Shown here: piece after piece, positions 639-57,866 of the stretch
How the letters are laid out: each line of letters begins with the position of its first letter
Numbering within the stretch: the stretch's first letter is position 1
Source: Squalus acanthias
Taxonomy: Eukaryota
Direction of reading: 5' to 3'
Assembly (NCBI GenBank): GCA_030390025.1
Contig: CM059436.1
Coordinates: 39,556,001-39,620,000, forward strand
DNA length: 64,000 bases
Position numbers and translations under genes: made by a program
Notes under the pieces: generated by a model
What the model saw: the letters and a program-made list of their open reading frames with translations, nothing else
Told to the model about the DNA's origin: nothing
Database searches by the model: none

Positions 639-2381
639 GGGGGGAATTTTGCGGGGGATCAGCGGGCATGATTGGTAGCGGGTTGGCTGGGAAAATGTTT
701 TTTTTTGACAGCGGGCCAGGACCCCGCTATCAACCTGCCGCCACACGCCTTTCCCAAATGTCGGGTCTGTCATCGGTGAGAAGACCCGACATGCAACGGC
801 GGGGGAGGCAATTCAGGTCATTATGGCCTGGTTAACAGAGGATTAAGAACTATTTTCAGCTCACCTTCAGAGTTTACCAGGTCACCCACCGGGTCCACGC
901 TGCTTGGGGATCACGTCAGGTAAGCAGGTCAGGAGTTGAATGGCCATGGAATCATCTCACTGCAAATGTGCTATAAAAGCTCCCATCTCACAGCTGTTCA
1001 CTTTCCAAGCTCAGGAGCTGTTGCTTACTGCATTTGGAAGACAGCTTTATGCAGGTTGCAAGTGTTTGGAGCAAACTCTGTATCCAGTATCACCTCATTG
1101 GAACAACCTCTTTCACCATTGACAGATTGCTTCTGTCATCTCAAGTTCAACTGCCATCTATTACATCAGAATGGGAACGGTTTATACTGTCTCACCTTGG
1201 TCCTCAGAATCCCACCACGATCAGCCCCAACACCAGCAGCACCAGGCACACTAGCAGCACCAACAACAACACCAACCTTCTCTGCAATCAACTGATGCTG
1301 CACAGGACACAGGGCATCAGTACCCGACCACATTGCTGCCCGGGGATGCCAGGGATGACGTCACCATGGCCAGATTTACTTCACTTGACGCTGCACACCC
1401 TCGCTACCACATGATGCGCCAGGTTGGCACCACCCCACACCAACACCATAAAGCATCCCTACAATGCCCAAGCCATTTGCTTCGCACTCATCAGCATTGC
1501 GGGGGGTACCATTCACTGCAACTCACTAAGCCACTTCCAAAGATTCACACAAATCTGTCCAAGAACACAAAGTGTTGAAAATAAAGATTTCAATGTTTGA
1601 CAGCACATTACCAGAAACTTCACATGAACATTGGCTAAAACACCCATGTGCCTACCCTTGTGTGCTGTTAGTTTGTATGATTGGACAAGGATGAGGGTGA
1701 GTGTGAGTGGTGGCTCGTGAGATGGGGAAGTGATAATGTAGATAGAGAGGGATGGGTGGAGATGCAAGGTAAGTTGGTGTGAGTAAGGATGTGCAGGAGT
1801 AGGGTAGGGAAGGCAGAGTGATGGGAATGTGATGAATGGCACAGCAGGATGAGGTTGAGTGCGGCTTGGCAGTAACTTTTCGTGATCTACTGAGATTATT
1901 GAAAGGTTTGCGCCACTGCAGCCAGGTACTCCTGACGACATCCCTGCTTGTGTCCTCCTGTGCAATGTGCAACCAGGTTGCATTGATCTCCTGGGGAGGT
2001 CTCTTCCTCCCATGGGAAGGGGAAAGAACCTCCTGCATGCTGTGACTATGGAGGGAGTCATGGCAGAGCCTGGGTGCAGCCCTGCACCTTTGTGCAGTGC
2101 TTGTCAGTGTTTGCAACACCTCAAAGCTGTAGAACCCTGACAGCATAAATGTCAAAATTAATTTGCGCATGGTCCCTTTAAGGAAACCGGCTGATGACAC
2201 ATCATCGAATGATGTCATCTAATCTGCTTCCTTTAATTGGCCGGCAAACGCGGTGGGTGGGCTTAACAAGCCCAATCAGGGGAAAATCATTTTGGACAGC
2301 GGGCTGGAGCCGGCAGCGAGACCGGGACCCGCCACCGACATCGCCCACCATGGACCTGCCGAGGTTGGTAAAATCCAGCCC
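639..2381 (+). mobile_element. Internally deleted non-autonomous Harbinger element (transposase 5' remnant on +, Myb/SANT exon 1 on -)
   Basis: Imperfect TIRs GGGGGGAATTTT / AAAATCCAGCCC and a 3-bp TSD ATT (636-638, 2382-2384). The minus-strand peptide resembles Harbinger Myb/SANT exon 1 (EVLSPSHGRKRPPQEINATWLHIAQE). Colinear with 41084-42790. Confidence 0.85.
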
Positions 2382-2930
2382 ATTGTATCCTATTGATATA
2401 AGATCAAAATTTGGGTGGGGATTTTGATTACCTGACATTATCCATGTTGGGAGGAGTGGTAAGTGGAGGTTTTAGTGGAATTTTTTCTTGCTGTTTGATT
2501 AATATTAACATGTTTTAAATAACCATTTTCTCTGTCCTTTTAACATTGGGGAATATTCAGTGGCCATGCCTTCGTTTACAGTCGGGCGGTGGGGGAGGCA
2601 GAGAAGAAGGTACTAAGGGAATGTTGTTTGATCCCCAAAAGTGCATTGTTTTGACTTCAGCACATGTTTCACCAACAGCTCCACCTCGCTTTCAGTAAAT
2701 TGCTGAAAGTGAGTTGGAGCTGTTGGTAAAATAAGACCTAAATCCCACTTTCACTTGTGTCTTCCCACCACTAGTTTATTTCCTATATCTCTTAAATAAA
2801 TCCTTTAACATGGAAATGCATTGCTTATGTTTCTGTAGCTTGATTTGGCAGTAGCATTTCTACTAGCTGTATTTTCATCAAATTGAAAGTGAAAGTTGTT
2901 AAATTTAGAACTGGTGATTTAACCACTGTT

Positions 2931-3670
2931 ATGAATGGTAGGACCCTAGGAAGGACAGAGGATCAGAGGGACCTTGGTGTGCATGTACATAGATGCCCGA
3001 AGGCAGCAGGACAGGTAGATAAGGTGGTTAAGAAGGCATATGGGATACTTGCCTTCATTAGCCGAGGCATAGAATATAAGAGCAGGGAGGTTATGATGGA
3101 GCTGTACAAAACGCTAGTTAGGCCACAGCTGGAATACTGTGTGCAGTTCTGGTCGCCACACTATAGGAAGGATGTGATTGCATTGGAGAGGGTGCAGAGG
3201 AGATTCACCAGGATGTTACCTGGGCTGGAGCGTTTCAGCTATGAAGAGAGACTGGACAGGCTGGGGTTGTTTTCCTTAGAGCAGAGAAGGCTGAGGGGGG
3301 ACCTGATTGAGGTGTACAAAATTATGAGGGGCATAGATAGGGTAGATAGAAAGGAACTTTTTCCCTTAGTAGAGGGGTCAATAATCAGGGGGCATAGTTT
3401 CAAGATAAGGGGCAGGAGGTTCAGAGGGAATTTGAGGAAAAACCTTTTCACCCAGAGGGTGGTTGGAATCTGGAACTCACTACCTGAAAGAGTGGTAGAG
3501 GCAGGAGCCCTCACAACATTCAAGAAGCATTTAGATGAGCACTTGAAACGCCATAGCATACAAGGTTACGGACCAAGTGCTGGAAAATGGGATTAGAATA
3601 GACAGGGCTTGATGGCCGGTGCAGGCACGATGGGCCGAAGGGCCTCTTTCTGTGCTATATACTCTATGAC
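2931..3670 (+). mobile_element. 5'-truncated CR1 LINE (ORF2 C-terminus and 3' UTR)
   Basis: ORF 2883..3596 has the CR1 motifs RDLGV, LYKTLVRPQLEYCVQFWSP, LERVQRRFTRM, RRLRGDLIEVYKI and FTQRVV..WN.LP. The tail ends ctctatgact. Confidence 0.95.
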
Positions 3671-3839
3671 TATTAGCAGAATGGAAAATTATGGTCAATA
3701 TTGGGGCAGTATAGAAGGAGCTTGCAAAAGGTTTCAAGCAAGGATTGGTATACTATCTACCTATCATCGAATGAGCAAGAAAAGGCAGACATTTTTAACA
3801 TAGTGTACAGAGTAAGCATGTTGTAATCAGACACTTAAA

Positions 3840-4610
3840 GGCCACGATATTTACGGGGAGGGAGCGGGGGTTGAGGGAGAAGTTTTGCAGTTGGGAAACC
3901 GAGAAGAGCAGGTTTCCCTCAGATCCTGCCAAATTTAACGGCAGGACCTGATTACCATTTTGGAAAACTGTTGCCCGGCCGCAGCCAGCTGGATTGAAAG
4001 GCTAGCTGTCGGGTGGGTAGGCCTGCGGCTCCAGGCAGCACTTGGGGAGCGGAGAGGCAAGCCGCAGAGATCGGGGGGAGGAGGGGAGAAGATCGTGGAA
4101 GGGGCCGGAGAGATCGGGGGAGAAGGTTGCGGATGGCCTGTGGAGAATATGGGGGTCAGGAGGAGATTGTGGGCCACGGAGGACATAGAGATGGCATCGG
4201 ATCATGGAGGATGGGGATCCGATCGTTGGGGAGGGTAACGGGTTTGCTTGGTGGGCCAGGAAGAAGCACTCCTGCTCCACCCGGCACACCAAGCAGTGCT
4301 TTAAAAGGCTGTTCCATCCAGCAGTCCTCGCCTCCCTTTAGCTGCCGGGTTTTTCGAGGCCCGGGAAACCCAGCCAGCCAGCATTGAAGCTGGAACAGAG
4401 AAAAAAATCTGAGGCACGCAGCCTCATTAAAATATTTCAGTCAGAGATCCACCTCTTGGGAGTGGGTTGGTCGCCTGCTCCATCGTCCCACCACTGTTAA
4501 AACCGGAAGTGGGCGGGTTCGAGGCGGGTTAGGGTCGGGTTGAAATTTTTTATATTTTTACTTCCCACCCGACCCAAACCCACCTGTTTTTGGGGGTTAA
4601 AATTTCCCCC
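3840..4610. mobile_element. GC-rich Harbinger-type MITE-like element
   Basis: Ends resemble the Harbinger TIRs seen elsewhere in the window (GGCCACGATATTTAC ... TAAAATTTCCCCC). GC-rich non-coding interior. No clean TSD. Confidence 0.45.
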
Positions 4611-6394
4611 TTTGTCGCCTTTTCTCCTTCATAATCTAAATCTTCTCCCTGTAAAGAGCTCTTCATAATTTTAGGAAAAGTATTAATAATAAAAATAGGT
4701 TACAAAATGTACTGTAGCAACGTGGATTAGCAACCATTAACCATTTGGTACCGAGGGAAATAAAAAAAAATTAAAGAGGTGAAGCTAAAACCTTTTAGAA
4801 AAATTATACATTTCAATAGTTTAGTGATCGTAGAACCCTCGACACACTCTGCTGAACGGTTGAGTGTGGAGAAATTCAGTTGCCTTTTCTTCCACAAATC
4901 GACAGTGACACTTGTCTTTTTTTCTGCTTGTTACCATATTACTTTGGACAGGATTCCTAGTAAAATTGGTCCCAGCTGGGACACATTATTCAAAGTGCTT
5001 GATTGCAACAGTATTTTACAACACTGTAACCTGGATAATGTATTTGTAACATTTTTTTGGTGAGAAATCTAGGTGTAATAAAGTCAGCAGCCAAGAAGAA
5101 AGGAGGCAAGATTGCAGAGCTTATACAATCAAGAAAAACGTATCACAATATGGCTTCTAAGTTTAATTTTTACACTTCTGGGGAGGGTACAAAAATGCTT
5201 GTCATCTGTTAGCTGATCCTTTTTCATCTCTACAACCTCTCTCTCCCATGACCTTTCTTGTCTGGTTCTATTTTATCAAGAACGCTATGGGCCCTGCTCC
5301 TCTGAACTTTCCTCTCTTGTTCCTTCAAAGGGTTCAAATATGCTGCCTGCTCTCTCTTTTGTCTTACTTGCATTCTACTGCACGTACAGGTTATATTTTC
5401 TGATCCATTTCCTGCATTCTCATATATTTCCCAGTCCCTATGCTAAGGTATATAGTCCTTCCTACATTCTCCCAAGAGTATACTTTCTTTGTCCAGAGAA
5501 TGACAAATGTAACACATGTTGACTTCCCTATGGACTAAACATTCCTGGGAGTGGCCTAATAAATTATTCATAGTGAGTCCTGGCACATATTGGGCCTGGC
5601 AGTAGGAGCTCAGCAACTGGAAGCTGGGTCAGGGAAATTATCGTTATAGTGGTGCAGCAAAATTTAAAGACATGCAGCAGCAATTATAAGTAAGTGGCTG
5701 CATAGGATGGTAAAAATTGTTGCAGCCTTTACAAAGGCTGAAAATATTCGAAAAGCTTATCCAAAGGCTGCATGGACTGAAAAAGTAGCTGCCAAAAGCT
5801 GCGGCTGGCAAAATAAATATGAAGGCTGGAAACGGAATCTATAGGTAACTGATTGAGCTGTGCAGCCCCTGAACCTCATGTTTAATGATTGGTGAAGTCA
5901 AGGTGTGATGAGGGTTGTTCTGTTTGGCATTTCCAAACAACTTTTTCCAGAAGGTGGCAGTACAATAAGCCAGGGTCAGTGCTGTGTATGGTAATCACAA
6001 GACCTGGGAACAGATGCAGAAAAAGATGGTACACCTTAAGGAAACTGTCATGGTTAGACTACCCAACAGTACCATTTACCAGGTAGTCATCCAGGTATTC
6101 CTGCCACAAAGTGTTGCCTGTTCCATGTTTACTGCTGTCTCAAGCCAAGCCCTCACACAATCATGTAGCGGTTTCAGTAATTCTCATGCACATGCATTCT
6201 CCAGCAGGGCACTATACACAAACTGCAACTTACAACTGACATTGTTAGCACAAAGGGATTCTTACATAAAATGATTGTAACAAACCTACCTGCCTACTTG
6301 ATGCATGGTCATGAAGCATAGGACCGTGCTGCAATCCGTGAACCCTGTGCTTTGGGAAATGAAGCAATGTGGTGAGATTGATCAACCATGTTAT

Positions 6395-7221
6395 GCAACA
6401 CCTGCCCTTATACCTCCCCCCTTCCCACTGTCCAGGGCCCCAAACACCCCTTCCAGGTGAAACAGCGATTTACTTGTACTTCTTGCAATTTAGTATACTG
6501 TATTCGCTGCTCACGATGTGGTCTCCTCTACATTGGGGAGACCAAACGCAGATTGGGTGACCGCTTTGCGGAACACCTCCGTTCAGTCCATAAGGGGGAC
6601 TCCGAGCTTCCGGTCGCCTGTCACTTTAATTCTCCGCTCCACTCCCACTCAGACCTCACTGTCCTCGGCCTCTTGCATTGTTCCACTGAAGCTCAGCGTA
6701 AGCTCGAGGAACAGCACCTCATCTTTCGATCAGGCACTTTACAGCCTTCTGGACTCAACATAGAGTTCAACAATTTCAGATCATAACCTCGGCCCCTATC
6801 CTATATATATTTTTTATCCACACCTTTTGTTTGTGTCTTTTCTTCTCTCCCACATGGCAGCTGTCTTTCATTCTGCCAGCGCAATTTAGACTTCATCTAG
6901 AGCCATCCTTTGTTTCCTAACCTGTCCCATTACCATCTCCTTTTGCCTTGAATATCTCTTAATGTCTCTTAATCTCTCCTGCCTTCTATCCTATCACAGG
7001 CCTTCCCTTTTGTTCTTTCATCCCCTCCCCCCTTTCCCAGCCCCTACACTTGCTTAAAAATCTGTTCCATTTCCTGCTTTTTTCCAGTTCTGACGAAAGG
7101 TCATCGAGCTGAAACGTTAACTCTGTTTCTCTCTTCACAGATGCTGCCTGACCTGCTGAGTATCTCCAGCATTTTCTGTTTTTATTTCAGATTTCCAGCA
7201 TCTGCAGTATTTTCTTTTTGT
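6395..7221 (+). mobile_element. 5'-truncated Penelope-like element (GIY-YIG endonuclease C-terminus plus 3' pLTR)
   Basis: ORF 6388..6786 contains NLVYCIRCSRCGLLYIGETKRRLGDRFAEH...VACHFN...PSGLN, the PLE GIY-YIG domain. An 11-bp TSD AACCATGTTAT lies at 6384-6394 and 7222-7232. Confidence 0.9.
7086..7122 (+). ncRNA. Minimal type-I hammerhead ribozyme motif in the Penelope pLTR
   Basis: AGTT-CTGACGA-A-AGGTC-ATC-GAGCT-GAAAC-GTT-AACT shows the CUGANGA and GAAA cores, stem I AGTT/AACT, stem II with one mismatch, and a palindromic ACGT helix III. PLE minimal hammerheads are an established class. Confidence 0.75.
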
Positions 7222-7259
7222 AACCATGTTATTACATAGTGTTACAGTATATAGTACAT

Positions 7260-7982
7260 GGTAGGAAAATTGGCTCGTGCCCCCTTTGGGGTGATAACTT
7301 CGCCGGGGTGCTACTTTTAGCGCCCCAAAAAAGTTAGTGCCCCCACGCCTGAAATTCAATGGTAGCTCCCAAGCAGGAGGCAGGGCACTACTGGAAGCGC
7401 TCCCCCTCCCTCTTGGGACGCTCCCATTGAATATCACGGCGCTACGTGCAGCAGCGCCATGCGCGTCGGCACATAGCGCCACGGTACTGCAGGCCTCCCC
7501 TGATTAAAGGGGAGGGGCCTAGCGCTTAGCGACCCTGCTGGACCACCGGGGAGCGGGGTGCTGGCAAAAAAGCCCAGCACTCAATAGAAGTGCCGGCCAA
7601 CACCCCGCAGCAGGAAGCGAGAGGGGGCAGGTGCTGGCAGGTGGCCAAAAAAAAAGGGGCACCTGGCACCTGCCCTTTAATTATCGCTGCCCCGGCCGCA
7701 AAAACGCCCCCCTGACCCTGTCAGACATAGCGTCCGGTGGTAGGTCAGGGGGCGTGAGCCAAGTTTGCGGCCGGGGCGCGAGTGAGGCACTGTACATGGC
7801 GATGACGTCATCGCCGGAGGTGCAGCGCCGCAGGGTGCTACCGGCTACCGCTGCGCTAACCAACCGCTGAATTTCGTGGGAGGCATTAGCGGCGATGTGT
7901 CCGGGCGCGAGTTGCTTTGCGCCCCGGTAGCGCCCGAAAAGGGGCGCTACCGGAAGGCACAGAACAACTGAATTTTCCCCCC
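7260..7982 (-). mobile_element. Harbinger MITE related to the 22266-26344 element
   Basis: The reverse complement of the right end (GGGGGGAAAATTCAGTTG...GCAAAGCAACT.GCGCC) matches the left subterminal region of 22266-26344. Homologous to 9123-9855. Confidence 0.75.
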
Positions 7983-7985
7983 ACA

Positions 7986-8385
7986 GTATTTACAGCACAG
8001 AAACAGGCCATTCAGCCCAACGAGTCCATGTCGGTGTTTATGCTCCACACGAGCCTCTTCCCATTCTTCTTCATCTAACCCTATCAACATATCCTTCTAT
8101 TCCATTCTCCCTCATGTATTTAATAAGCTTCCCCTTAAATGCATCTATGCTATTCGCCTCAACCACTTCATGTGGTAGCGAGTTCCACATACTAACCACT
8201 CTCTGGTAAAGAAGTTTCTCTTGAATTCCCTATTGGATTTATTAGTGAGTATCTTATATTTATGGCCCCTAGTTCTGGTCTTGCCTGGAAGTGGAAACAT
8301 CTTTTCTACCCTATGAAACCCTTTCATAATCTTAAAGATCTCTATCAAGTCACCCCTCAGTCTTTTTTCTAGAAAAAAGAGCCCT
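7986..8385 (-). mobile_element. CR1 LINE 3' fragment
   Basis: Minus-strand peptide MIEIFKIMKGF...KTRTRGHKYKI...KRNFFT followed by a CR1-type 3' UTR. Confidence 0.85.
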
Positions 8386-9122
8386 ATTGGTAATCAGTGG
8401 GAAAGGAGATGATTGGGTGATACTGCAGACAACTCCTGTGCTAGCCTGAAGCTTTGGAAAGGTAGCAATTACAGTCGGCTTTCGGTGAATTAGCAGATAG
8501 TATTTGGCTATTTTACGTTCCACATAAACATTGCATACTGTTGGGAAAATAAAACATTTTCAAAAATTGAGATAGATGAACATATTTTTAAAATTTGCAA
8601 AACATTGTAAAAAGGTTTTCATTAAAATGGCAACAAAAATTAATAACAAAAGTCAGTACTCAAGAATTCCTTTGAAAGCTCCTTGGTTCATAGTGGTTCA
8701 TGGTGCATTGGCACTGGGATCACTGTTCTTTGCAGCAAGCACCTGTGGTTCACTGAGCTGACCTTGCACCATAATACAACATTGTCTCATGTACATATTG
8801 TCATGGTGCTCCCAGCGAACAGTGCATGACACACTGAGATTGCACCGAGGAAGTTATAGGGGTTAGGTTATCTGGTGCCAGCAGCTCTTAAAGAAGCTGG
8901 ATTTCTTAAAGCTGTACTGGTGTAGATGGTGGGGTGGGGGGGCCGGTGGGGAGAATGTCTGCAGCAAGGTCAAGTGGTAAAACAGTATCATTTCACGATA
9001 CTGCGCTGGATGCCATACTCCAGGAGGTGTTGGTCAGAAGCATCATTCTTTTTGGTGTGGAGGGGCATCTTGCTGTGAAGAATGGTGCAAGATTGACATA
9101 AATTGGGGCAGCAGAATGATGA

Positions 9123-9855: not shown

Positions 9856-10458
9856 AGATGCTGTTTCACTTGTCCACAGAATGTGGCAGTAGATGCAATA
9901 GAAATTATGGACCGGAATTTTCTGGGGTCTGTACGGGTGAGATCGGCGATGGGTCGGGTGGGAAATTTGAAATAAGTTGCAGCTGGTTGGGAACCTGCCA
10001 TCATCACGCCCCCACGCGCTTTTCCTTCAGGCGCATTTGCTGGTGCAGCACCAACCTGACCAGTAGAGGCGGGCGACCTAATTCAAATCATTAACAGGTA
10101 GTTGCCAGACCCTGAAGAGCGTTTTTCAGCCTACCTTTCAAATTTCCCTGGCTGCCCACGGGATTCACGCAGCTCGGGAACCACATCTGTCAGCATAAGG
10201 CGGGAGTTGAGTGGCCATTGCTCCAGCTGATTAGATGACAGCATGAAATGTACTATAAAAGCTCCCACCTCACAGCTGATCACTTTCCTCAGGCAGAAGC
10301 TGTTGCTGACTGCATTCCCAGCACACATTTAGATTTCTACAGGCTGCAAGTGTTTCCAGCAAAGTCGCCATCCAGTCTCACCTCATTGGTTCAACCTCTC
10401 TCACCATTGACAGATTGCTTCTCTCATCTCTACTTGACCTGAGATCTATTCCACCAGC

Positions 10459-11495
10459 ATGGGTGCCATTTATACTGTCTCACCTTGGTCCCCAGAATCG
10501 GACCACAATGACCCCAGCACACCAGCAACACCAACAACACCACCAACCTTCTCCTCAACCACCTGATGCTGCACAGGACAGAGGGCATCGGCGCAGGGCT
10601 GCGCCGCGCCGGAGGCAATACCCCCAACACAGGGTGTACAGGCAGAGGATGAGCTTCTTCAACATGACTGAGCAGCAGTGCTAAAGGAGGCTCAGGCTAT
10701 CGCGGCAGGTCGTCGCAGACATTTGCACATTGCTCGAGCAAGATCTGCAGCCCAGAGGAGTGGGTGGATACTCCTTACCAGTGGCTGTCAAAGTCATCAG
10801 CGCCCTCAACTTCTTCGCCTCAGACTCCTTCCAGGGATCTGCAGCAGACATTTGTGGTATCTTGCAGTTGGCCGCCCACAGATGCATCACACAGGTCACC
10901 GATGCCCTCTTTGACAAGTCAGCCAATTATATCAACTTTGCCACTGATGAAGCCAGTGTTACTGAGTGGGCGCTCGACATTGCCACTCTGGCTGGCTTCC
11001 GACGGGTGCAGGGCGTCATCAACTGCACACATGTAGCCATCAGGGCCCCCCATCATAAACCAGGAGTTTTTGTCAACCGCAAGTGCTTCCACTCCCTCAA
11101 TGTGCAGCTGGTCTGCAACCATAGGAAGATCATCATGCATGTGTGTGCCAAATTCCCTCAGCTCTTTGCTCCTCCAAACAGACTTTCCAGCTGGTTGCTT
11201 GGAGACAAGGGCTATCCACTGAAGATGTGGCTCATGACACCCTTGAGGAGACCAAGTACTGAGGCCCAGGAGAGATACAATGAAAGCCACATTTCCACCA
11301 GATGTGTCATAGAGCAGACAATAGGCATGCTTAAAATGCGCTTCAGATGCCTTGACAGATCTGCAGGAGCCCTTCAGTACGCACCAACCAGGATCTCCAG
11401 AATCGTCATGGTCTGCTGCGCCTGCACAAAATAGCACAGCGGCGAGGATTAGCGCTGCATGAAGAGCAAGGCTCTGAGCGCACAGCCTCTTCAGC
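10459..11495 (+). pseudogene. Harbinger (HARBI1-like) DDE transposase, disrupted
   Basis: Motifs [40 protein letters not shown] and [16 protein letters not shown]. There is an in-frame stop at 10682-10684, the first catalytic D is changed to N, and the GSCHDSFIL segment is deleted. Confidence 0.9.
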
Positions 11496-17923: not shown

Positions 17924-19152
17924 TGTAAGATTTTGGATCACAGTCACACACAGATTACCCAAAGGGTCTTAGGAGTTGTAAGGCATTTTATTAAAGAGCG
18001 ACAGTTTAAGTTAAGTACAACACGCAATCAAGATAGACATAGTCGACATACGACCGTGACAAGCAGCTGGTATCGGTCCCGATTGGACAGACGGCTGGGT
18101 CTTCCCTTCACCGTCTGTGCTAAAAGCTCTTTTGATGGCCCAGAAATTCGTCCGAATACGGGAGAGTACACACTGTGTACTCACCCATATTCGGTCCCGA
18201 AGTGCCGGTTTCCTGCATGCACTGCGCATGTGCGGGAAACCGGCACTTCCGATATTGCGAAGGGGGCAGTTCCTAAGTGAACCGCGTGCGCACTACAGGC
18301 TGTGCGCACGCAGCACACTTAGTTTTTTTTCAGGTTTGAACGCGAAGGTGAGTGTTGAAGATTTTACACATGAAAAAAGCAGGCGTAAGACCCCCTTTTA
18401 ACAAGGTAAGTAGTTAATTAAGTATTATTTTAAATTTTTTTCAACAGATTTATCTTTTTTAGAGACTTTAAAGAAAGGTAAGTTTATTTTTATAACTTTT
18501 AAACAGAATTTAAATTTTTTCAAAAATTTAAATTTTTGTTTAAAGTGGTTAATTTATTTAACTATAGTTATTTTATTAATGTGATGGTTTTTAAAAAAAA
18601 ATTAATTGAGGTTTAGCTGTTCTTTTGGGGGCAATTTGTATTCATAGCTTTGACAGCTCTTCCTGTCAAAACTATGAATGAAAGATGGTGTGCTGCCATT
18701 GGCTCTAACTGGCTCACGTGATCCCAGATGTCGCATCGAACTAACTGCGCCTCTGGGACACGCACACACTGCGCGCCGGCACCAGGGAGAGGCCCAGGAA
18801 CTGAAGTTCGTGTGGGCCAAAACCATAAAGGCAGGCGCGGAGTGCGATATCGCGGGGGATCCTTACCCCCGCGGCAACCATCGAAATCCAATTTCTGGGC
18901 CAATATCTCTTTTACTCTCTTTTTAGGGGTGGGCCATGGGTAGATTATCAAAGATACAGTCAACAACCTTTCTAGCACACAAACAGCAGACAGCTAGTCT
19001 GGAAACAAGTTCACCACCACGGTGCAGAATGTTATAACATCCACAGGGAACCAAGGACATAAGCAAATTCTAAGCATCTATCCAGTTATTCGGACACCAG
19101 TCTGAAGAGACATTTGTCTCAAGTTATTTCTTCCAATTCATGATTTCTTACA
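17924..19152 (-). repeat. 5' LTR, interrupted by a MITE
   Basis: Matches 11922-12402 apart from the 18137-18901 insertion, an ~18-bp indel and scattered substitutions. Confidence 0.92.
18137..18901. mobile_element. Harbinger-type MITE in the 5' LTR
   Basis: TIRs GGCCCAGAAATT / AATTTCTGGGCC, flanked by GAT / AAT where the other LTR has a single GAT. Same family as 56235-56884, in the opposite orientation. Confidence 0.9.
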
Positions 19153-37844: not shown

Positions 37845-38190
37845 ACAACAACAGAAAACGCTAGAAAAACTCAGCAGGCCAGGCAACATCCATGGAGAGA
37901 GAAACAGAGTTAACGTTTCAGGTCGAAGACCCTTCGTCGGAACTGAGAAAAAGGCAGGAAATGAAACAGATAAAAATGCAAGGGGGAGGCTGGGGGTAGG
38001 AATAACTATGGTAAGTAGAGACATTAAGAGATGCTCAAGGCAAGACGAGATGGTAATGGGACAGGTTAAGAAACAAAAGGTGAAGTGTGAAATGCTGGCA
38101 GAATGAGAGACAGCTGCCGTAGGGGGAAGAGAGAGGAAAAAAAAGGAAAAAGGCACGGACCAAAACGGTGGATAAAGACCAAACTAAAAA
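37845..38190 (-). mobile_element. Penelope pLTR fragment with a mutated hammerhead (37908-37944)
   Basis: Reverse complement AGTT-CCGACGA-A-GGGTC-TTC-GACCT-GAAAC-GTT-AACT is homologous to 7086-7122, with core U4 changed to C. Confidence 0.75.
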
Positions 38191-41011: not shown

Positions 41012-42860
41012 GTAAATCTGAAATGCCAGCATAAAATGCTGGAAATACTCAGCAGCTCAGGCAGCATCTCGACCTGAGACGTAGGGGGAGGAATTTTTCA
41101 GGGGGTCAACGGGTCGGGACCCCGCTGTCAACCCGCCGCCACGCACTGAACAGAAACGATACGCAGCGGTGGGGGAGGTAAGTCAGGTCATTATGACCTT
41201 GTTAACAGCCCATTAAAAAGTATTTTGAGCACACCTTTACATTTTACGAGGTCACCCATGGGGTCCACGCTGCTCAGAGATCACGTCAGGTAAGCAGGTC
41301 GGGAGTTGTATGACCATGGAATCATCTCATTACTTGACAGCTGCAAATGTGCTATAAAAGCTCCCATCTCACAACTGTTCACTTTCCAACCTCAGAAGCT
41401 GTTGCTTACTACATTTGGAAGACAGATTGAGCTTTATACAGGTTGCAAGTGTTTGGAGTAAACTCTGTATCCAGTGTCACCTCATTGGAACAACCTCTCT
41501 CACCATTGACAGATTGCTTCTGTCATCTCAAGTTCACCTGCCATCTATTACATTAGCATTGGTGCCCTTGAAACTATCTTAGCTTAGTCCTCAGAATCCC
41601 AACAAAATCAGCCCCAACACCAGCAGCACCAGGCACACCAGCAGCACCAACAACAACACCAACCTTCTCCGCAATCAACTGATGCTGCACAGGACACAGT
41701 GCATCAGCACCCGACCACATTGCTGTCCGGGACGCCAGGGATGACCTCACCATGGCCAGATTTACTTCACTTGAGGCTGTACACCCCAGCTGCCACATGA
41801 TGCGCCAGGTTGGCACCACCCCACACCAACACCATAAAGCATCCCTACAATGCCCAAGCCATTCTTTTCACACTCATCAGCATTGTGGGGGGTACCATTA
41901 TGTCTCACCATTCACTGCAACTCACTAAGCCACTTCCAAAGGTTCACATAAATCTGGCCAAGAATGCAAAGTGTTGAAAATAAAGATTTCAATGTTTGAC
42001 AGCACATTACCAGAAACTTCACATGAACATTGGCTAAAACACACAAGTGCCTACCCTTGTGTGTTAGTTATTATGATTGGACTAGGATGAGGGTGAGTGT
42101 GAGGGGTGGCTAGTGAGATGGGGAAGTGACAATGTAGATAGAGAGGGATGGGTGGAGGTGCAAAGTAAGTTGGTGTGAGTAAGGATGTGCAGGAGTAAGG
42201 TAGGGAAGGCAGAGTGATGGGGATGTGATGTGTGGCACAGCAGGATGAGGTTGAGTGTGGCTTTGCAGTAACGTTTTGTGATCTACTGAGATCATTGAAA
42301 GGTTTGCATCACTGCAGCCTGGTCCCCCTGATGACATCCCTGTTTGTGTCCTCCTGTGCAATGTGCAACCAGACTGTGTTGGTCTCCTGGGGAGGTCTCT
42401 TCCGCCCATTGGAAGGGAAAAGAACCTCCCTGCGAGCTGTGACTCCCTCCATAAGCATATGGAGGGAGTCATGAGAGAGCCTAGGTGCAGCCGTGCACTT
42501 CTGTGCAGTGTTTGTCAGTGTTTGCAGCACCTCAATTCTGTAGAACACTGACAGCACAACTGTCAAAGTAAATTTGCACATGGTCCCTTTAAGGAAACCA
42601 GCTGATGATGCATCATCAAATGACGTCATCAGATCTGCTTCCTTCAATTGGCTGGCAAACATGCTGGGCGGACTTAACAAACCCAATCAGGGGAAAATCA
42701 TTTTGGACAGCGGGCTGGAGCCAGCAGCGGGGATGGGACCCGCCACCGACGTCGCCCACTACAGACCCGCTGATTGGTAAAATCCAGCCCGTGAACTCTG
42801 TTTCTCTCTCCAGGGATGTTGCCTGACCTGTTGATTATTTGCAGCATTTTCTGTTTCCTC
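41012..42860. mobile_element. Short inverted Penelope pLTR end, split by a Harbinger insertion
   Basis: 41030-41069 is the reverse complement of 42814-42853. The pLTR sequence GACCTGA.AC|GTN|AACTCTGTTTCTCTC is interrupted at 41084-42790. Confidence 0.7.
41084..42790 (+). mobile_element. Internally deleted Harbinger, second copy of the 639-2381 family
   Basis: Colinear with 639-2381. Right TIR AAAATCCAGCCC. Flanked by GTA / GTG. The left end is uncertain by about 2 bp within a G run. Confidence 0.85.
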
Positions 42861-44769
42861 AGAGGCTTTTCTTTACCACCTGAGGCTTTGAAAATGCCCA
42901 GCAGCACTCCCTACATGCTTAAAAAACTTTTAACATATATTGCAGCAAGCCACTACTTCAATAAAATCAAACAAACCCAGTCTAAAAGCTTAAATGCAAA
43001 CTTACCTGAAAAATGTGTGTGTCCCTTTAAGAGGTTCTGACAGCGCCTCTGTCTGTCTCTTTACACGCTGGTTTCCCTGGCGTGGTTACGACCCAGCGCT
43101 GAACTCAGCACTAGGGTTGAAGTTCACCGTGGTGACATTAAGTCGACGTTGCATGCTGACTGACATCACCAATCTGCCATTTCTTTTTGCAGGGCGCTAA
43201 TACTTACCGGCAACGCTACGGGGAGGACCAAAATGGAGAACGCCGCGGGACCCGCCACCAATTTGTGAAAGAGCGGCGGCGGCCACTCTTTTGCCATTTT
43301 TTTATGGTAACGTGTAGCGTAAAGTCCCCGAATTTTTAGCCCAGAGGGTCTAAAATTCGGATGCACTGAAATGAATGCCCAAACGCCCAAGTCAGCTTTC
43401 CCTCGTTTACTATACCGTCCAGACACATACTCAATAAGCATGTTTAAATGTTGATAATTCTTACCCACATGCTAAGGAAATGAACTCTCTACTAGACAAC
43501 CATGAGTAACACAAACAAAAAGGTACACACAATAGAGGATAAAATCAGTGGAATTAAATGGAACTTGTAATATGCAACATGTATACCATCACCTGCTTTA
43601 AAGGACAGACATATCCAAGTTTAACATCGGCTAAGTTTGAATTTTGTAGAAAGAGTCAGAATTTGGATTCAAATCAGAATCATACTCTATTCATCTTGAA
43701 TTCCTCACTAAATGAAGAAGATTGAGCTATTTTGTTTTGCAACCTCACCAAATTTCACAGAAGTTTTGCAAGTCATGCACATTTCATACACATACAGTTG
43801 GAAACAACATTATAATATCACAATCAAAAATTTCCAATTAGCTAATTTAGTAGTAAATTTGGCCCTTAAGGCTTCCATATAATAATACTTGAATGAACTA
43901 TTGTTTAAATCTAGGTACTTGTCCAATAATCTCCTCAGCAACATTTACTGCTATGTTGATAGAATAGTGTTACTAAGGTTATAATGTTATTCAACTATAT
44001 GGAAATAATTATGTTTATTGTGTCTTGTATCAGATGGTATTTTTAAAAACACATTCAATGTTATCTCTTGTATAGAATGTCACAACCTTGAAAAGAGCGA
44101 GCCTGGCAGAGTAAGAGGACATTTGATAGACATGTCTGTAGCAAACACCTGCATTTCAGCACTGGTTAAAATGGGTTACAGATAAAGCCCTGATAAAAAA
44201 AAAACGAGAATAAAATTTAGCATAAACTTCTTGGCCGTGATTTTGCCAGCGCTCAGAGGGCGGATTTGGAGGCGGGTCAGGAGTTAAAATCAAAATGATT
44301 GACGGCAGGTTGCGAACCCGCTGCCATCCCGCCTCCACGCAACTTTGCAAAGTGTCGAGTCTGCGAGGTCCAATCAGACCCGACACCAAGCGGCGAGAGA
44401 GCCACTTAAGGCAGTTAACAGCTTGTTAACTGCCTAGGTAATCCGATTTTAAGAGGCTGTTCCCATTTTACTACATTTTCAGCGTGTTCCACATCGTGCG
44501 ACAAACACGCCAGCTGATTCTGCTGGGTTCAGCAACTAGCTAAATTCTTGACAGCTGCACCTGCAACTTAAAAGCGGACCTGTAACATGGCTGACTTTCA
44601 GATGCCAGAACTTTTGTTTTGAGGTTTTGGAACACATTTTGCAGGTCTATTGAGTTGTAAGTGTTTAAGCTGAGATCTATATGCACTGTGACCTCCTTGG
44701 AAAACCCTCTCCCCACATTGACTGAGCACTTATAACATCTGTTCCTCAACTGAGATATATACCAGCGGA

Positions 44770-45978
44770 ATGGGTACCATTTATACCCTCACATCCTGGT
44801 CCTCAGAATCAGAGAAAGAGCAGCCATGGCTGCAGCAGAACCAGTCACAACAGCAGCAGCAACAATAGGAGCGCCAACCTTCTCCTCAGCCAGCTGATGC
44901 TGCACAGGGCAGAGGGCATCAGCGCAGGGCTGCACCGCGCTGCAGGAGATACCCCCAACACAGGGTTTACAGGCCGAGGAGGAGCTTCCTCAACATGAGT
45001 GAGTAGCAGTGCCAAAGGAGGCTGAGACTTCCGCAAGAGGTAGTCGCTGACATCTGCGCAATGCTGCATCAACACCTGGAGCCCAGAGGAGCGGGTGGAT
45101 ACTCCTTACCAGTGGCTGTCAAAGTCACCACCGCACTCAACTTTGCTTCAGGCTCCTTCCAGGGATCAGCAGCAGACATCAGCGGCATCTTCCAGTTGGC
45201 CGCACACACTTGCATCATGCAGGTTACTGATGCCCTCTTTGCAAAGTCGCACAAATACATCCACTTCTCCATGGATGAAGCAAGTGTAACCGCGCATGCG
45301 GTTGGCTTTGCAAATATGGCAGGCTTCCCAAGGGTGCAGGGCGTCATAGACTGCACACATGTGGCCATTAGGGCACCCCATCACAACCCAACTGTATTTG
45401 TGAACCGCAAGGGCTTCCACTCCTTTAACATCCAGCTGGTGTGTAACCACATGAAGAACATTATGCATGTTTGCGCCAAGTTCCCTGGCAGTTGCCATGA
45501 CTCGTTCATCCTGCGGCAGTCTACTGTGCCTCAGCTGGTCAATCCGCCAACCCAACTTTCCGGATGGCTACTTGGAGACAAGGGCTATCCCCTGAAGATG
45601 TGGCTAATGACACCGATGAGGAGGCCATCAAATGAAGTTGTGGAGTGCTACAATGTGAGCCACATTTCCACCAGAAGCATCATAAAGCAAACCATCGGCT
45701 TGCTCAAAATGCGATTCAGATGCCTTGACAGATCTGGTGGAGCCCTACGGTATGCACCAGCCAGGGTCTCCAGAATCATCGTGGTCTGCTGTGCCCTGCA
45801 CAACATTGCACACTAGCGTGGCTCACCTCTGCCTGAGGAACAAGTGGCTCAGCGCACAGCCTCCTCCTCAGAGGAGGAGGAGGAAGAGGAGAAGGCGGAT
45901 GTGCCAGTTCCACCAGCACGCGAGCACATTGCTGGCCGTGAGGCAAGGGCTGCACTAATCCATGCCAGATTCGCGTAA
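44770..45978 (+). pseudogene. Harbinger DDE transposase with premature stops
   Basis: [25 protein letters not shown] and IIKQTIG (catalytic E changed to K). Stops at about 45004 and 45814. Confidence 0.9.
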
Positions 45979-55238: not shown

Positions 55239-56156
55239 ATACCTGAAATAATGTTCTAAAACTAGTTTATCTAAAGTTTGAAGTAATAAGAGAGTTCAAA
55301 TGTGTTATTTTAATGTACAGAAAGTGACATTTAAGCTTGTAAATTACTGTGAGCATTATTATTGTACAAACATTTAAGGGCTGATTCTGTGATTCGGTGC
55401 TCTTAGTGTGGGGAGCACCCTGAGAAATCCTGGGTGTGCATCTCTGGTTTTTAGTCCATTCATTTTAATTCAAATTTAAATTTAATTTTAATGGATGGAA
55501 AAACATGAGATTTGCTAAGATATGCTCCTGGTGAGTGGCACTCCCCACTGGAAACACCAAATCACAGAATCATCCCTTCACTGTGTTCACATCAAATTCT
55601 TCCTTCCTCTATTTTGATAGGAGCAGTAATCCTTTTGTTTTAAACGGGTTAATGCTTGTGTTAAAATAGCAGAGATGAAGTTGATATGAATGTATTAAAC
55701 ATTCACATAATAATATCACTCTCAAGGATTGATCCCGCTGGCATAAAAGGTGCATGCAATGGTCAGAACATGGAGCGGAGATCCCATTAAGTGGATTACC
55801 GATCCATTAGCAGAGTGTACAATCTTCCAGCTGACCCTTTAGGTTTTAATGACCCCAATGTGATTTCTAATCTGTTAGGACAGGATTGTGCTGTGCGCGT
55901 CGATCACCCATCCAGAGTAGGTAAACAGGAAAGCTAAAGGTGAGAAGGAGCTGTTACAGGAGCAGAAGCTTTTTTGTCTAATATCCTTTCATTATTTTTT
56001 CAGTTTCTTTTAGTGCTTATTTTTCTGAATTTTCTCTTGATTTCTTGGGAACTTCTTTATGCATATTGAAGAAAACATATCCATTTATTGATGCTGCGCT
56101 TTCTTGATATTTGAATAGCATTATATGTATGATCTTTACAGAAGTTATCATTACAG

Positions 56157-57122
56157 GATATAAAATAAAAACAGAAAATGCCAGAAATACTCAGCAGGTC
56201 AGGCAGCATCTGTGGAGGGAGAAACAGAGTTATTGGGCCAGAAATTCGGTTTTCCGGCTTCCTGCGGGTGCAAGCATCGCGCGCGTACTTACCTACCGCG
56301 CCTACCGTTGTGTTTTGGGCCCACGAGAACTTCGGGTCCTGGGCCTCTTGCAGCTGCCGGAAGACCTGTCAAATCTATGAATTGAAATCGGCCCCAAAAC
56401 AACACCTAAACTTCAAATAAATTTTTTAAAAAACATCAGATTTTTAAAATAACTATATGTTAAATAAATTAACTACTTTAAACAAAAATTTAAATTTTTG
56501 AAAAAATTAAAATACTTTTTAATGGTGCTAAAAATAAACTTACCTTTCTTTAAAGTATCTAAAAAAATAAACCTGTTGAAAAAATGTTTAAATTGTAATT
56601 AATTAACCACTTACCTTGTTAAAAACGGGTCTTGCGCCTCCTTTTTAAAAGCTCAGCTTCTTCCATACTTACCTTCCCGGAGAAACCTGAAAAAAAACTG
56701 AAGTTCGCTGCGTGCACGCAGCCTCTCCCGCGCACGCGGTTCACCTCTGAACCCCTCCCTTCACGAGACCAGAAGTTCTGGTTTCCCGTGCATGCGCAGT
56801 GCATGCAGGAAACCGGCACTTCAAGTGACCTTATGGGTGAGTACACAGCGCGTACTCACCCGACAAGCGCCGAATTTCTGGGCCAATGTTTCAGGTCGAT
56901 GACCTTTCGTCAGAACTGGAAAAAGTTAGAGATGTAACAGATTTTAAACAAGTGCAGGGACAGGGAAAGGGAGGAGGGAAGGAAAGAACAAAAGGGAAGG
57001 TCTGTGATAGGGTGGAAGGCAGGAGTGATTAAAGGACAGAAGTTCTGATTGTACAAAACAACAGGAGATGGTAATGGAACATTTTTTTTCAGATTTCCAG
57101 CATCCGCAGTATTTTGCTTTTG
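56157..57122 (-). mobile_element. Penelope pLTR insertion with partial inversion; its hammerhead (56228-56917) is split by a MITE
   Basis: 11-bp TSD TATCATTACAG (56146-56156, 57123-57133). Minus-strand pLTR followed by a plus-strand terminal piece. Core CTGACGA at 56907-56913 on - with a perfect stem II AGGTC/GACCT. Confidence 0.85.
56235..56884. mobile_element. Harbinger-type MITE (family of 18137-18901)
   Basis: TIRs GGGCCAGAAATTCG / CGAATTTCTGGGCC, flanked by ATT / AAT. AT-rich centre and subterminal hairpins shared with 18137-18901. Confidence 0.9.
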
Positions 57123-57866
57123 TATCATTACAGTATATACTTGTTTTAGATTTAAGTCTGAATGGCTAAGACATACACATCATCAAACCCATATATTATC
57201 TACGTAAAATGACTGGGCTTGATTACCGGTATTGTGCCTAATAAAATTATTGCATTTCCAGTCAATATTCTAACCAAGACAATTTTGCTAGTAAAGGTCA
57301 GAATTTCATGGTCTTCATATTTTTCATCATAACTATCAGATTTGGTTTAATTCTAATTGATTGTGGTCGTAGAAAATAATTTATTTTAATGATAGTGATA
57401 TTACCACTCGCACCAATACCCTGACAATGAAATTTGAAAATAATATACAGAAATTATTCAACATAATTCCTTAAGCCTCACACTTTCTTTCTTTAACAAT
57501 TTTCTTTCACACCTATTTCTGTTACATCTGCCTATAATGCCTGACTGTCACATTGGAACTTACTTGTATGTAATAATATATTTACCTTTGGTTGAGTCCT
57601 CCCAGCCCCAGTTTGTGGCCACAAGGTAGGTGGTGCATTCCACAGTGCCACACATCTGGGGCTTACTGAAATCCGAATTCTTGCCTCCCAGCTTCCTCCA
57701 GAATCTTTTCTGTCCGATATATTATTTTTATAGTTTAATGGTGCTTTTAATATATTAGTTACCTTTTTACATTTTTATACTTCTTTCAAATTAAAAAGTG
57801 GCTGTGGCCACTATGGAACATGCTCCCATGCTTGCCTGAGGTCGTTTGTTGGATCTCTCCCACTGC

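Follow-up and report, generated by a model that had tools for sequence, protein, structure and literature searches.

Recurrent insertion of a Harbinger-type MITE at the hammerhead triplet of a Penelope-like repeat in Squalus acanthias probably follows, for the most part, target sequence

In a 64,000-nt stretch of Squalus acanthias DNA (hereafter the window), a Harbinger-type MITE sits at the predicted cleavage triplet of a hammerhead ribozyme motif in the pLTR of a Penelope-like repeat, and members of the same MITE family were found at this triplet throughout the genome. The recurrence is most likely no ribozyme-targeting system and mostly reflects the target sequence. Taking all lines of evidence together, we consider it probable that a match to the target ANAY-AWT-RTNT (central triplet set off by hyphens), aided by CpG decay and combined with carry-over of the donor triplet, underlies the insertions and their flanks.

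As had been read from the window letters, the focal MITE lies between GAGTT (56227-56231) and GTTTC (56888-56892), and the uninterrupted copies of the motif at 7086-7122 (plus strand) and 37908-37944 (minus strand) read GAAAC-GTT-AACT. The original prediction also placed the 3-bp flanks at the position of the triplet. They do lie there (on the plus strand, ATT at 56232-56234 and AAT at 56885-56887), but they are no genuine duplication, and both differ from the GTT of intact copies. On the minus strand, the 5' half of the hammerhead reaches as far as the MITE; beyond it, at 56231-56228, lies the 3' strand of helix I. The parts of the locus, and a second family member in the window, are as follows.

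56235..56884, no strand assigned: non-coding Harbinger-type MITE, 650 bp, TIRs at both ends; an internal-deletion form of 762-765-bp copies
56235..56249, plus strand: left TIR, 15 bp
56870..56884, minus strand: right TIR, 15 bp, complementary to the left TIR at 14 of 15 positions; 122 nt of this right end are 73-75% identical to autonomous elements
56885..56887, minus strand: triplet upstream of the MITE, read as ATT on the ribozyme strand; likely the original target, a CpG-decayed GTT
56232..56234, minus strand: triplet downstream of the MITE, read as AAT on the ribozyme strand; likely donor-derived
56888..56917, minus strand: 5' half of the hammerhead motif, with helix I strand (56917-56914), CUGACGA core (56913-56907), unpaired A and 5-bp helix II (56906-56893), and GAAAC (56892-56888)
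56228..56231, minus strand: helix I, 3' strand, separated from the 5' half by the MITE
56158..56231, minus strand: 3' part of the pLTR, 91-93% identical to the 7-kb copy
56888..57081, minus strand: upstream part of the pLTR, 5'-truncated and without ORF, 82% identical to the 7-kb copy
57082..57124, plus strand: inverted pLTR tail adjoining the truncated end in a fold-back arrangement
18137..18901, no strand assigned: second MITE of the same family, 765 bp, about 82% identical to the focal MITE, flanked by GAT and AAT, outside the pLTR

Contigs of four runs placed on 55700-57500 included none linking the unique flank across the MITE. Contig joints that skip the MITE likely derive from paralogous empty copies, the orthologous empty site of the focal locus not being among them. 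Fragments of the pLTR often occur as fold-back pairs, both in the window (57082-57124) and at many genomic loci. One pLTR 3' fragment (42790-42856) lies directly behind a copy of another dispersed repeat family, whose copies in the window (777-2346, 10201-11422, 41147-42757 and 44676-45795) are 60-96% identical.

The motif had been read as a Penelope hammerhead ribozyme, and the boxes, the helices and the position of the putative ribozyme behind a GIY-YIG frame all agree with the anatomy of a Penelope minimal hammerhead (min-HHR). Three features elsewhere in the window belong to the host repeat.

6406..6786, plus strand: C-terminal GIY-YIG fragment of a Penelope-like ORF, preceding an uninterrupted pLTR copy (Pfam E = 4.9e-5, over the cut-off)
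7086..7122, plus strand: uninterrupted hammerhead motif with one helix II mismatch
37908..37944, minus strand: uninterrupted hammerhead motif with core U4 changed to C

CUGANGA and GAAA boxes with an N-U-H triplet are present in the 7086-7122 copy and in the commonest genomic form; in the focal copy the boxes are accompanied by AUU upstream and AAU downstream. Both 'uninterrupted' copies in the window are themselves defective, one through the U4 to C change (37938-37940) and the other through the helix II mismatch (7090-7110), which was seen again elsewhere and may be characteristic of a subfamily. For the monomer motif, a competing hairpin is predicted to have the lowest energy, and no Rfam hammerhead model matched in a scan of the window. 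In seven of eight loci the core lies 274-306 nt past the stop of the Penelope GIY-YIG frame, which places it in the terminal-repeat position of an element with RT and GIY-YIG. A weak RVT_1 match (E = 4e-4, under the cut-off) was obtained in the same frame as GIY-YIG, in one of two partial frames of relatives. Open Penelope frames are up to 1,004 aa long and, over the query part, 98% identical to it; the family is therefore young. Genome-wide, 64,574 empty sites were counted, 54,361 of them with an exact GTT; an exact ATT was found in 6,077 of 60,438 (10%).

Within the sections of Cervera and De la Pena (2014; PMC4209133) drawn on here, min-HHRs share with this motif the core boxes, a 4-bp helix I, an unpaired base (A here) before helix II (5 bp here), a palindromic 15.2-16.2 segment (ACGU here) without loop 3, a place behind an RT/GIY-YIG frame, and the abundance of solo and inverted copies. 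They differ from it in the pair next to the core, typically G10.1-C11.1 (a feature outside the descriptor of that paper) and A-U or G-U here, and in copy number, 2,000-9,000 as against some 65,000 here; a transposon insertion in a hammerhead motif, as seen here, is not described in those sections.

The assignment of the MITE to a Harbinger-type family is supported by a parent with a DDE_Tnp_4 transposase, a Myb/SANT frame and common TIRs. A search of the 3.7-Gb genome with the focal MITE returned 5,459 candidates, the best copies being 90-96% identical, and exact 12-mer MITE ends numbered 42,619 genome-wide against 133 for the control. A search with DDE_Tnp_4 led to loci that have the TIR and 112-122 terminal nt in common with MITEs; identity of these terminal nucleotides of the parents is 73-75% with the focal copy and as high as 96% with another MITE subfamily. 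Five complete autonomous elements of 2.9-4.5 kb could be delimited, and the one that was scanned contains a 383-aa DDE_Tnp_4 ORF (E = 1.9e-43) and a second ORF with Myb_DNA-bind_5 (E = 3.8e-14). DDE_Tnp_4 candidates numbered 63,886 genome-wide; of the 150 that were scored, many had open frames of 384-392 aa. One end of a 4.5-kb autonomous element (L300:2055-6554) adjoins the hammerhead triplet, and its opposite end meets the TIR of a different family member, an arrangement equivalent to an element inserted at an element end. Another, of 3.7 kb with an intact-looking 383-aa transposase frame (L281:1819-5476), occupies a second pLTR site, site C, with mismatched ATT/AAT flanks, and at a further locus (L109) a MITE is nested at an AT-rich internal site of a same-family copy.

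Identical duplications were AAT or ATT in 35 of 47 cases and TAA or TTA in none of the 47, with the ANT pattern in 38 of 47. Because its duplications are AWT, with no TWA among them, we use 'Harbinger-type' for this family and do not regard it as a strict member of PIF/Harbinger. According to the portions of PMC4482050 used here, PIF/Harbinger elements and Tourist-like MITEs such as mPing have in common with it DDE_Tnp_4, Myb/SANT, short TIRs starting with GG and a 3-bp duplication, the latter being TWA in PIF/Harbinger whereas here it is AWT within ANAY-AWT-RTNT. The Pangu group of the PHIS superfamily shares the ANT-type 3-bp duplication, GG termini and two ORFs, but in the same portions its second ORF is without known motif, where Myb/SANT is present here, and no vertebrate host is given (PMC4482050). 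In the elephant shark no Harbinger was found, and the part of that report used here calls for other cartilaginous fish (PMC9179366).

Mapping of insertion points along the pLTR revealed the peak at the GTT triplet that the original prediction had anticipated. MITE ends located 0-45 nt upstream of a pLTR anchor numbered 246, with 0 for a reversed-pattern control, and among the first 100 of these listed 78 were at the triplet and two more at the triplet of an inverted copy (counted by eye). Downstream, 198 MITE ends were found within 60 nt of the core; the first 100 listed comprised 77 at the triplet, six at a position 6 nt further (+6 site), eight elsewhere in the repeat and nine outside it. 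Among the first 100 of 129 upstream matches listed, site B accounted for about 12 and site C for about 20, while about 19 fell on the triplet of a neighbouring inverted copy. The ratios of orientations (51:32 and 15:3) are biased by the exact-end pattern.

From the junction lists 120 loci were fetched, and after removal of those that were off-site, duplicated, with an unresolvable TIR pair or with non-matching flanks, 83 distinct filled loci remained (including L001, L030 and L091). They fall into 20 clusters at 92% identity. It is highly improbable that the peak was inherited through amplification of MITE-carrying pLTR composites by the Penelope machinery: 65 of the 83 loci do belong to three MITE clusters (25, 23 and 17 members) and a few tandem duplicates are present, but each large cluster includes both orientations and several triplet pairs, and on this ground we rejected the explanation. 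Moreover, the MITEs at the triplet represent many subfamilies, 68-98% alike, the same subfamilies dominate unbiased loci, and autonomous copies also occur at the triplet (L300), as they do at site C (L281). The triplet insertions are independent of one another.

The triplet nonetheless receives a small share of all insertions, approximately 1.2%. In a set of 110 loci collected without regard to the pLTR (focal locus excluded), 98 distinct elements were resolved, of which two (L030 and L091) were at the triplet as against four at one CR1-like site, and hence the family does not behave as a target-specific transposon with most insertions at one target. Recurrent landing positions, used two to four times, were also seen in other repeats among the unbiased loci: the CR1-like group (L062, L076, L086 and L102) and further groups L072/L075/L103, L112/L118, L083/L111 and L010/L115.

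Unbiased insertions (90 training sites) gave a symmetric target profile, ANAY-AWT-RTNT, of 5.4-5.9 bits. The hammerhead site fits this profile at most informative positions, and its centre fits fully only after the change from GTT to ATT; the ATT form ranks at the 99.98th percentile of position weight matrix (PWM) scores and the GTT form at the 99.1st-99.3rd. Two control sites were compared, a LINE site presumably in a CR1-like reverse-transcriptase region, as assigned from a motif, and the following.

6961..6963, plus strand: site C, second landing site in the pLTR, with the highest PWM score in the 7-kb copy

Per-copy occupancy by one exact end, derived from exact-match patterns and by-eye counts among the first 100 matches listed, was 0.39% at the triplet, 0.39-0.49% at site C and 0.41% at the CR1-like LINE site; divided by form, it was 2.5% for ATT and 0.15% for GTT. 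The further proposal that the conserved core doubles as a special landing site is thus not supported, since the triplet is occupied no more often per copy than the two controls and its GTT form is poorer than either. Recurrence at the hammerhead triplet is likely due to the DNA target match and not to ribozyme biology. As to why the triplet tops the raw counts within the pLTR, the hammerhead end is the part that most copies keep; among the cores considered, 5 of 35 copies reached upstream as far as site C and 10 of 35 as far as site B.

The target was ATT at 54 of the 83 filled loci and GTT at 29, as compared with 10% ATT among empty copies. This bias is 16.7-fold (p ~ 1e-33), against a predicted ATT:GTT preference of 18-28. 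Given the 54 CpG-decayed targets, most insertions, and the focal one too, likely entered motifs that were already damaged. The CpG in helix II was decayed in 8 of 45 ATT copies and 1 of 23 GTT copies (p = 0.15), which hints that ATT copies are older.

Active steering of the transposase, with the hammerhead core or the pLTR as its goal, whether by the DNA shape of the overlapping palindromes, by open chromatin or by a bound factor, is quite unlikely. The peak is sharp at the triplet, and the ratio of observed to PWM-predicted insertions is higher at both pLTR sites (triplet ~9-15, site C 5-7) than at the CR1 site (1.4-1.6). Relative to half-sites outside the pLTR, a residual of 2.7 is left for ATT and of 1.8 for GTT, the latter based on only two outside counts and both uncontrolled for family age and chromatin; relative to site C it is about 2. 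Against steering, however, stand the ~1.2% share of insertions, with fewer unbiased elements at the triplet than at the CR1-like site, the equal per-copy occupancy of site C, and the intact GTT form being the colder target. Target sequence remains the preferred reading, with a two- to three-fold excess at the triplet beyond what sequence preference accounts for.

Flanking triplets were unequal in 41 of the 98 unbiased elements, 34 of these having AAT or ATT on one side, whereas mismatch between TIR arms, taken for comparison, was 2.5% per site. The 83 filled loci comprised 34 ATT/ATT and 22 GTT/GTT pairs, 11 of AAT with ATT, three AAT/GTT, three of ATT with GTT and ten others; AAT/AAT was not among the 83. 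Triplets foreign to the target were found where empty copies show what the target was: AAT at 15 of 155 triplet junctions, ATT at 8 of 27 site-C junctions and ATT at 8 of 50 CR1-like LINE junctions, in each case against 0 of the first 100 empty sites listed. CR1 loci chosen mostly for non-AAT triplets were kept out of these rates. At site C, 24 pairs included ten AAT/AAT, eight of AAT with ATT, two ATT/ATT and four others, and the seven pairs at the +6 site included three TCT/TCT, two AAT/TCT and one AAT/AAT. Cases with both sides foreign were thus AAT/AAT in one of seven at the +6 site and ATT/ATT in two of 24 at site C, one of the latter position-shifted. Where the target was GTT or TCT, the foreign triplet was AAT and not the reverse complement of the target, and of the 31 pairs with at least two differing letters none consisted of reverse complements.

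Two other accounts of the flanks were rejected. They are not a longer TIR without duplication, given the 22 GTT/GTT and three TCT/TCT target duplications, and ATT/ATT pairs do not stem from donor replacement on both sides, given the lack of AAT/AAT among the 83 loci. It is also unlikely that all targets were intact GTT, so that each insertion broke an intact motif and ATT or AAT flanks are later products of CpG decay, of point mutation or of hairpin correction across the TIR stem. Both copies of the triplet do lie in a CpG context, ATT and AAT flanks can pair and so lengthen the TIR stem in the predicted fold, and AAT-ATT swaps make up 12 of the 41 mismatches; such swaps taken alone fit hairpin correction as well as carry-over, which counts against the latter. 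Independent decay, however, predicts mixed pairs far in excess of ATT/ATT, and the observed ratio of ATT/ATT to mixed to GTT/GTT, 34:3:22, led us to reject decay after insertion. Hairpin correction, for its part, predicts AAC at GTT targets and AGA at TCT targets, where AAT was seen (3 of 83 and 2 of 7, respectively).

On balance we lean towards carry-over of the donor triplet as the source of the mismatched flanks. Under such a scheme the transposase and the Myb/SANT protein would make a 3-nt staggered cut, and the excised element would bring its donor triplet along as a 3-nt overhang, to be ligated at one junction. Each junction would then briefly be a heteroduplex of target and donor letters, resolving most often to target/target and otherwise to donor/target. 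At the focal locus, GTT would have decayed to ATT before the insertion, and AAT would have been supplied by the donor.

For mPing, a duplication cut with 5' overhangs has been proposed (PMC4561436), and the element delivers donor TTA/TAA to Cas9 breaks (PMC11254759), as stated in the sections of those papers considered here. A staggered duplication cut is common to that proposal and ours, but with TCA donors in yeast TTA/TAA was read in 45 of 46 mPing insertions, in the data cited from PMC4561436, as opposed to mismatched triplets in ~40% of natural copies here; frequent carry-over would accordingly set the present MITE family apart from mPing. In the part of PMC7351741 relied on here, piggyBac carries a TTAA overhang and at non-canonical sites resembles our scheme in the donor-derived overhangs on the excised element, while differing from it in superfamily, in its 4-nt TTAA and in its hairpin intermediates. 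The loose 3-nt target of the MITE family may be why mismatches are common in it and rare in piggyBac.

Since the pre-insertion target of the focal copy was likely ATT, its C15.2-G16.2 pair had likely been lost before the MITE arrived. The insertion therefore likely completed the loss of a motif in which the short helix III had been weakened beforehand, and function is not expected; the downstream triplet is without U16.1, and the predicted fold pairs both flanks onto the TIR stem. Destruction of the ribozyme by a MITE would nevertheless not be automatic, because of 55 filled copies that retain the whole 5' half, 14 are predicted to be able to form all six modelled pairs of helices I and III with the MITE hairpin in between. 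The focal copy (AAU) does not belong to these 14. MITE-closed folds lie 4.8-13.7 kcal/mol above the ensemble (median ~7). In the 37.9-kb copy the natural dimer fold, which contains two cores, is ~15 kcal/mol less stable than the dimer minimum, so that in the same model MITE closure costs about as much as the natural dimer does per core. Nearest-neighbour folding is no means of ranking active hammerhead folds, dimer and MITE-closed monomer both being well above the ensemble. Min-HHRs are thought to act as dimers, their in vitro cleavage is weak, and an added helix III gives weak monomer cleavage, according to the passages of PMC4209133 consulted. We regard as improbable, on these models, that in filled copies with GTT downstream the MITE hairpin might serve as loop 3 and close helix III, which would yield a monomer-cleaving ribozyme and make the MITE an activator, not a destroyer.

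The hotspot is thus probably nothing out of the ordinary, given a DNA transposon that is choosy about its target and a repeat present in 65,000 copies; the 17-fold bias indicates that CpG decay can create transposon landing sites. Our literature search, with most subscription papers outside its reach, returned no report of a hammerhead hotspot or of natural donor carry-over in Harbinger elements. With tens of thousands of empty copies to show which letters preceded an insertion, the repeat also constitutes a natural experiment, one that exposes frequent foreign triplets at Harbinger-type junctions, and this mismatched-duplication signal is more worth pursuing than the hotspot. Should carry-over be true, such elements would mutate their own target sites. 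To judge by the title of Li et al. 2013, piggyBac reportedly can mutate noncanonical sites. Carry-over would, moreover, lend genomic support to the staggered-cut model, here for an element of a vertebrate, and dating or annotation by matched duplications would mislead.
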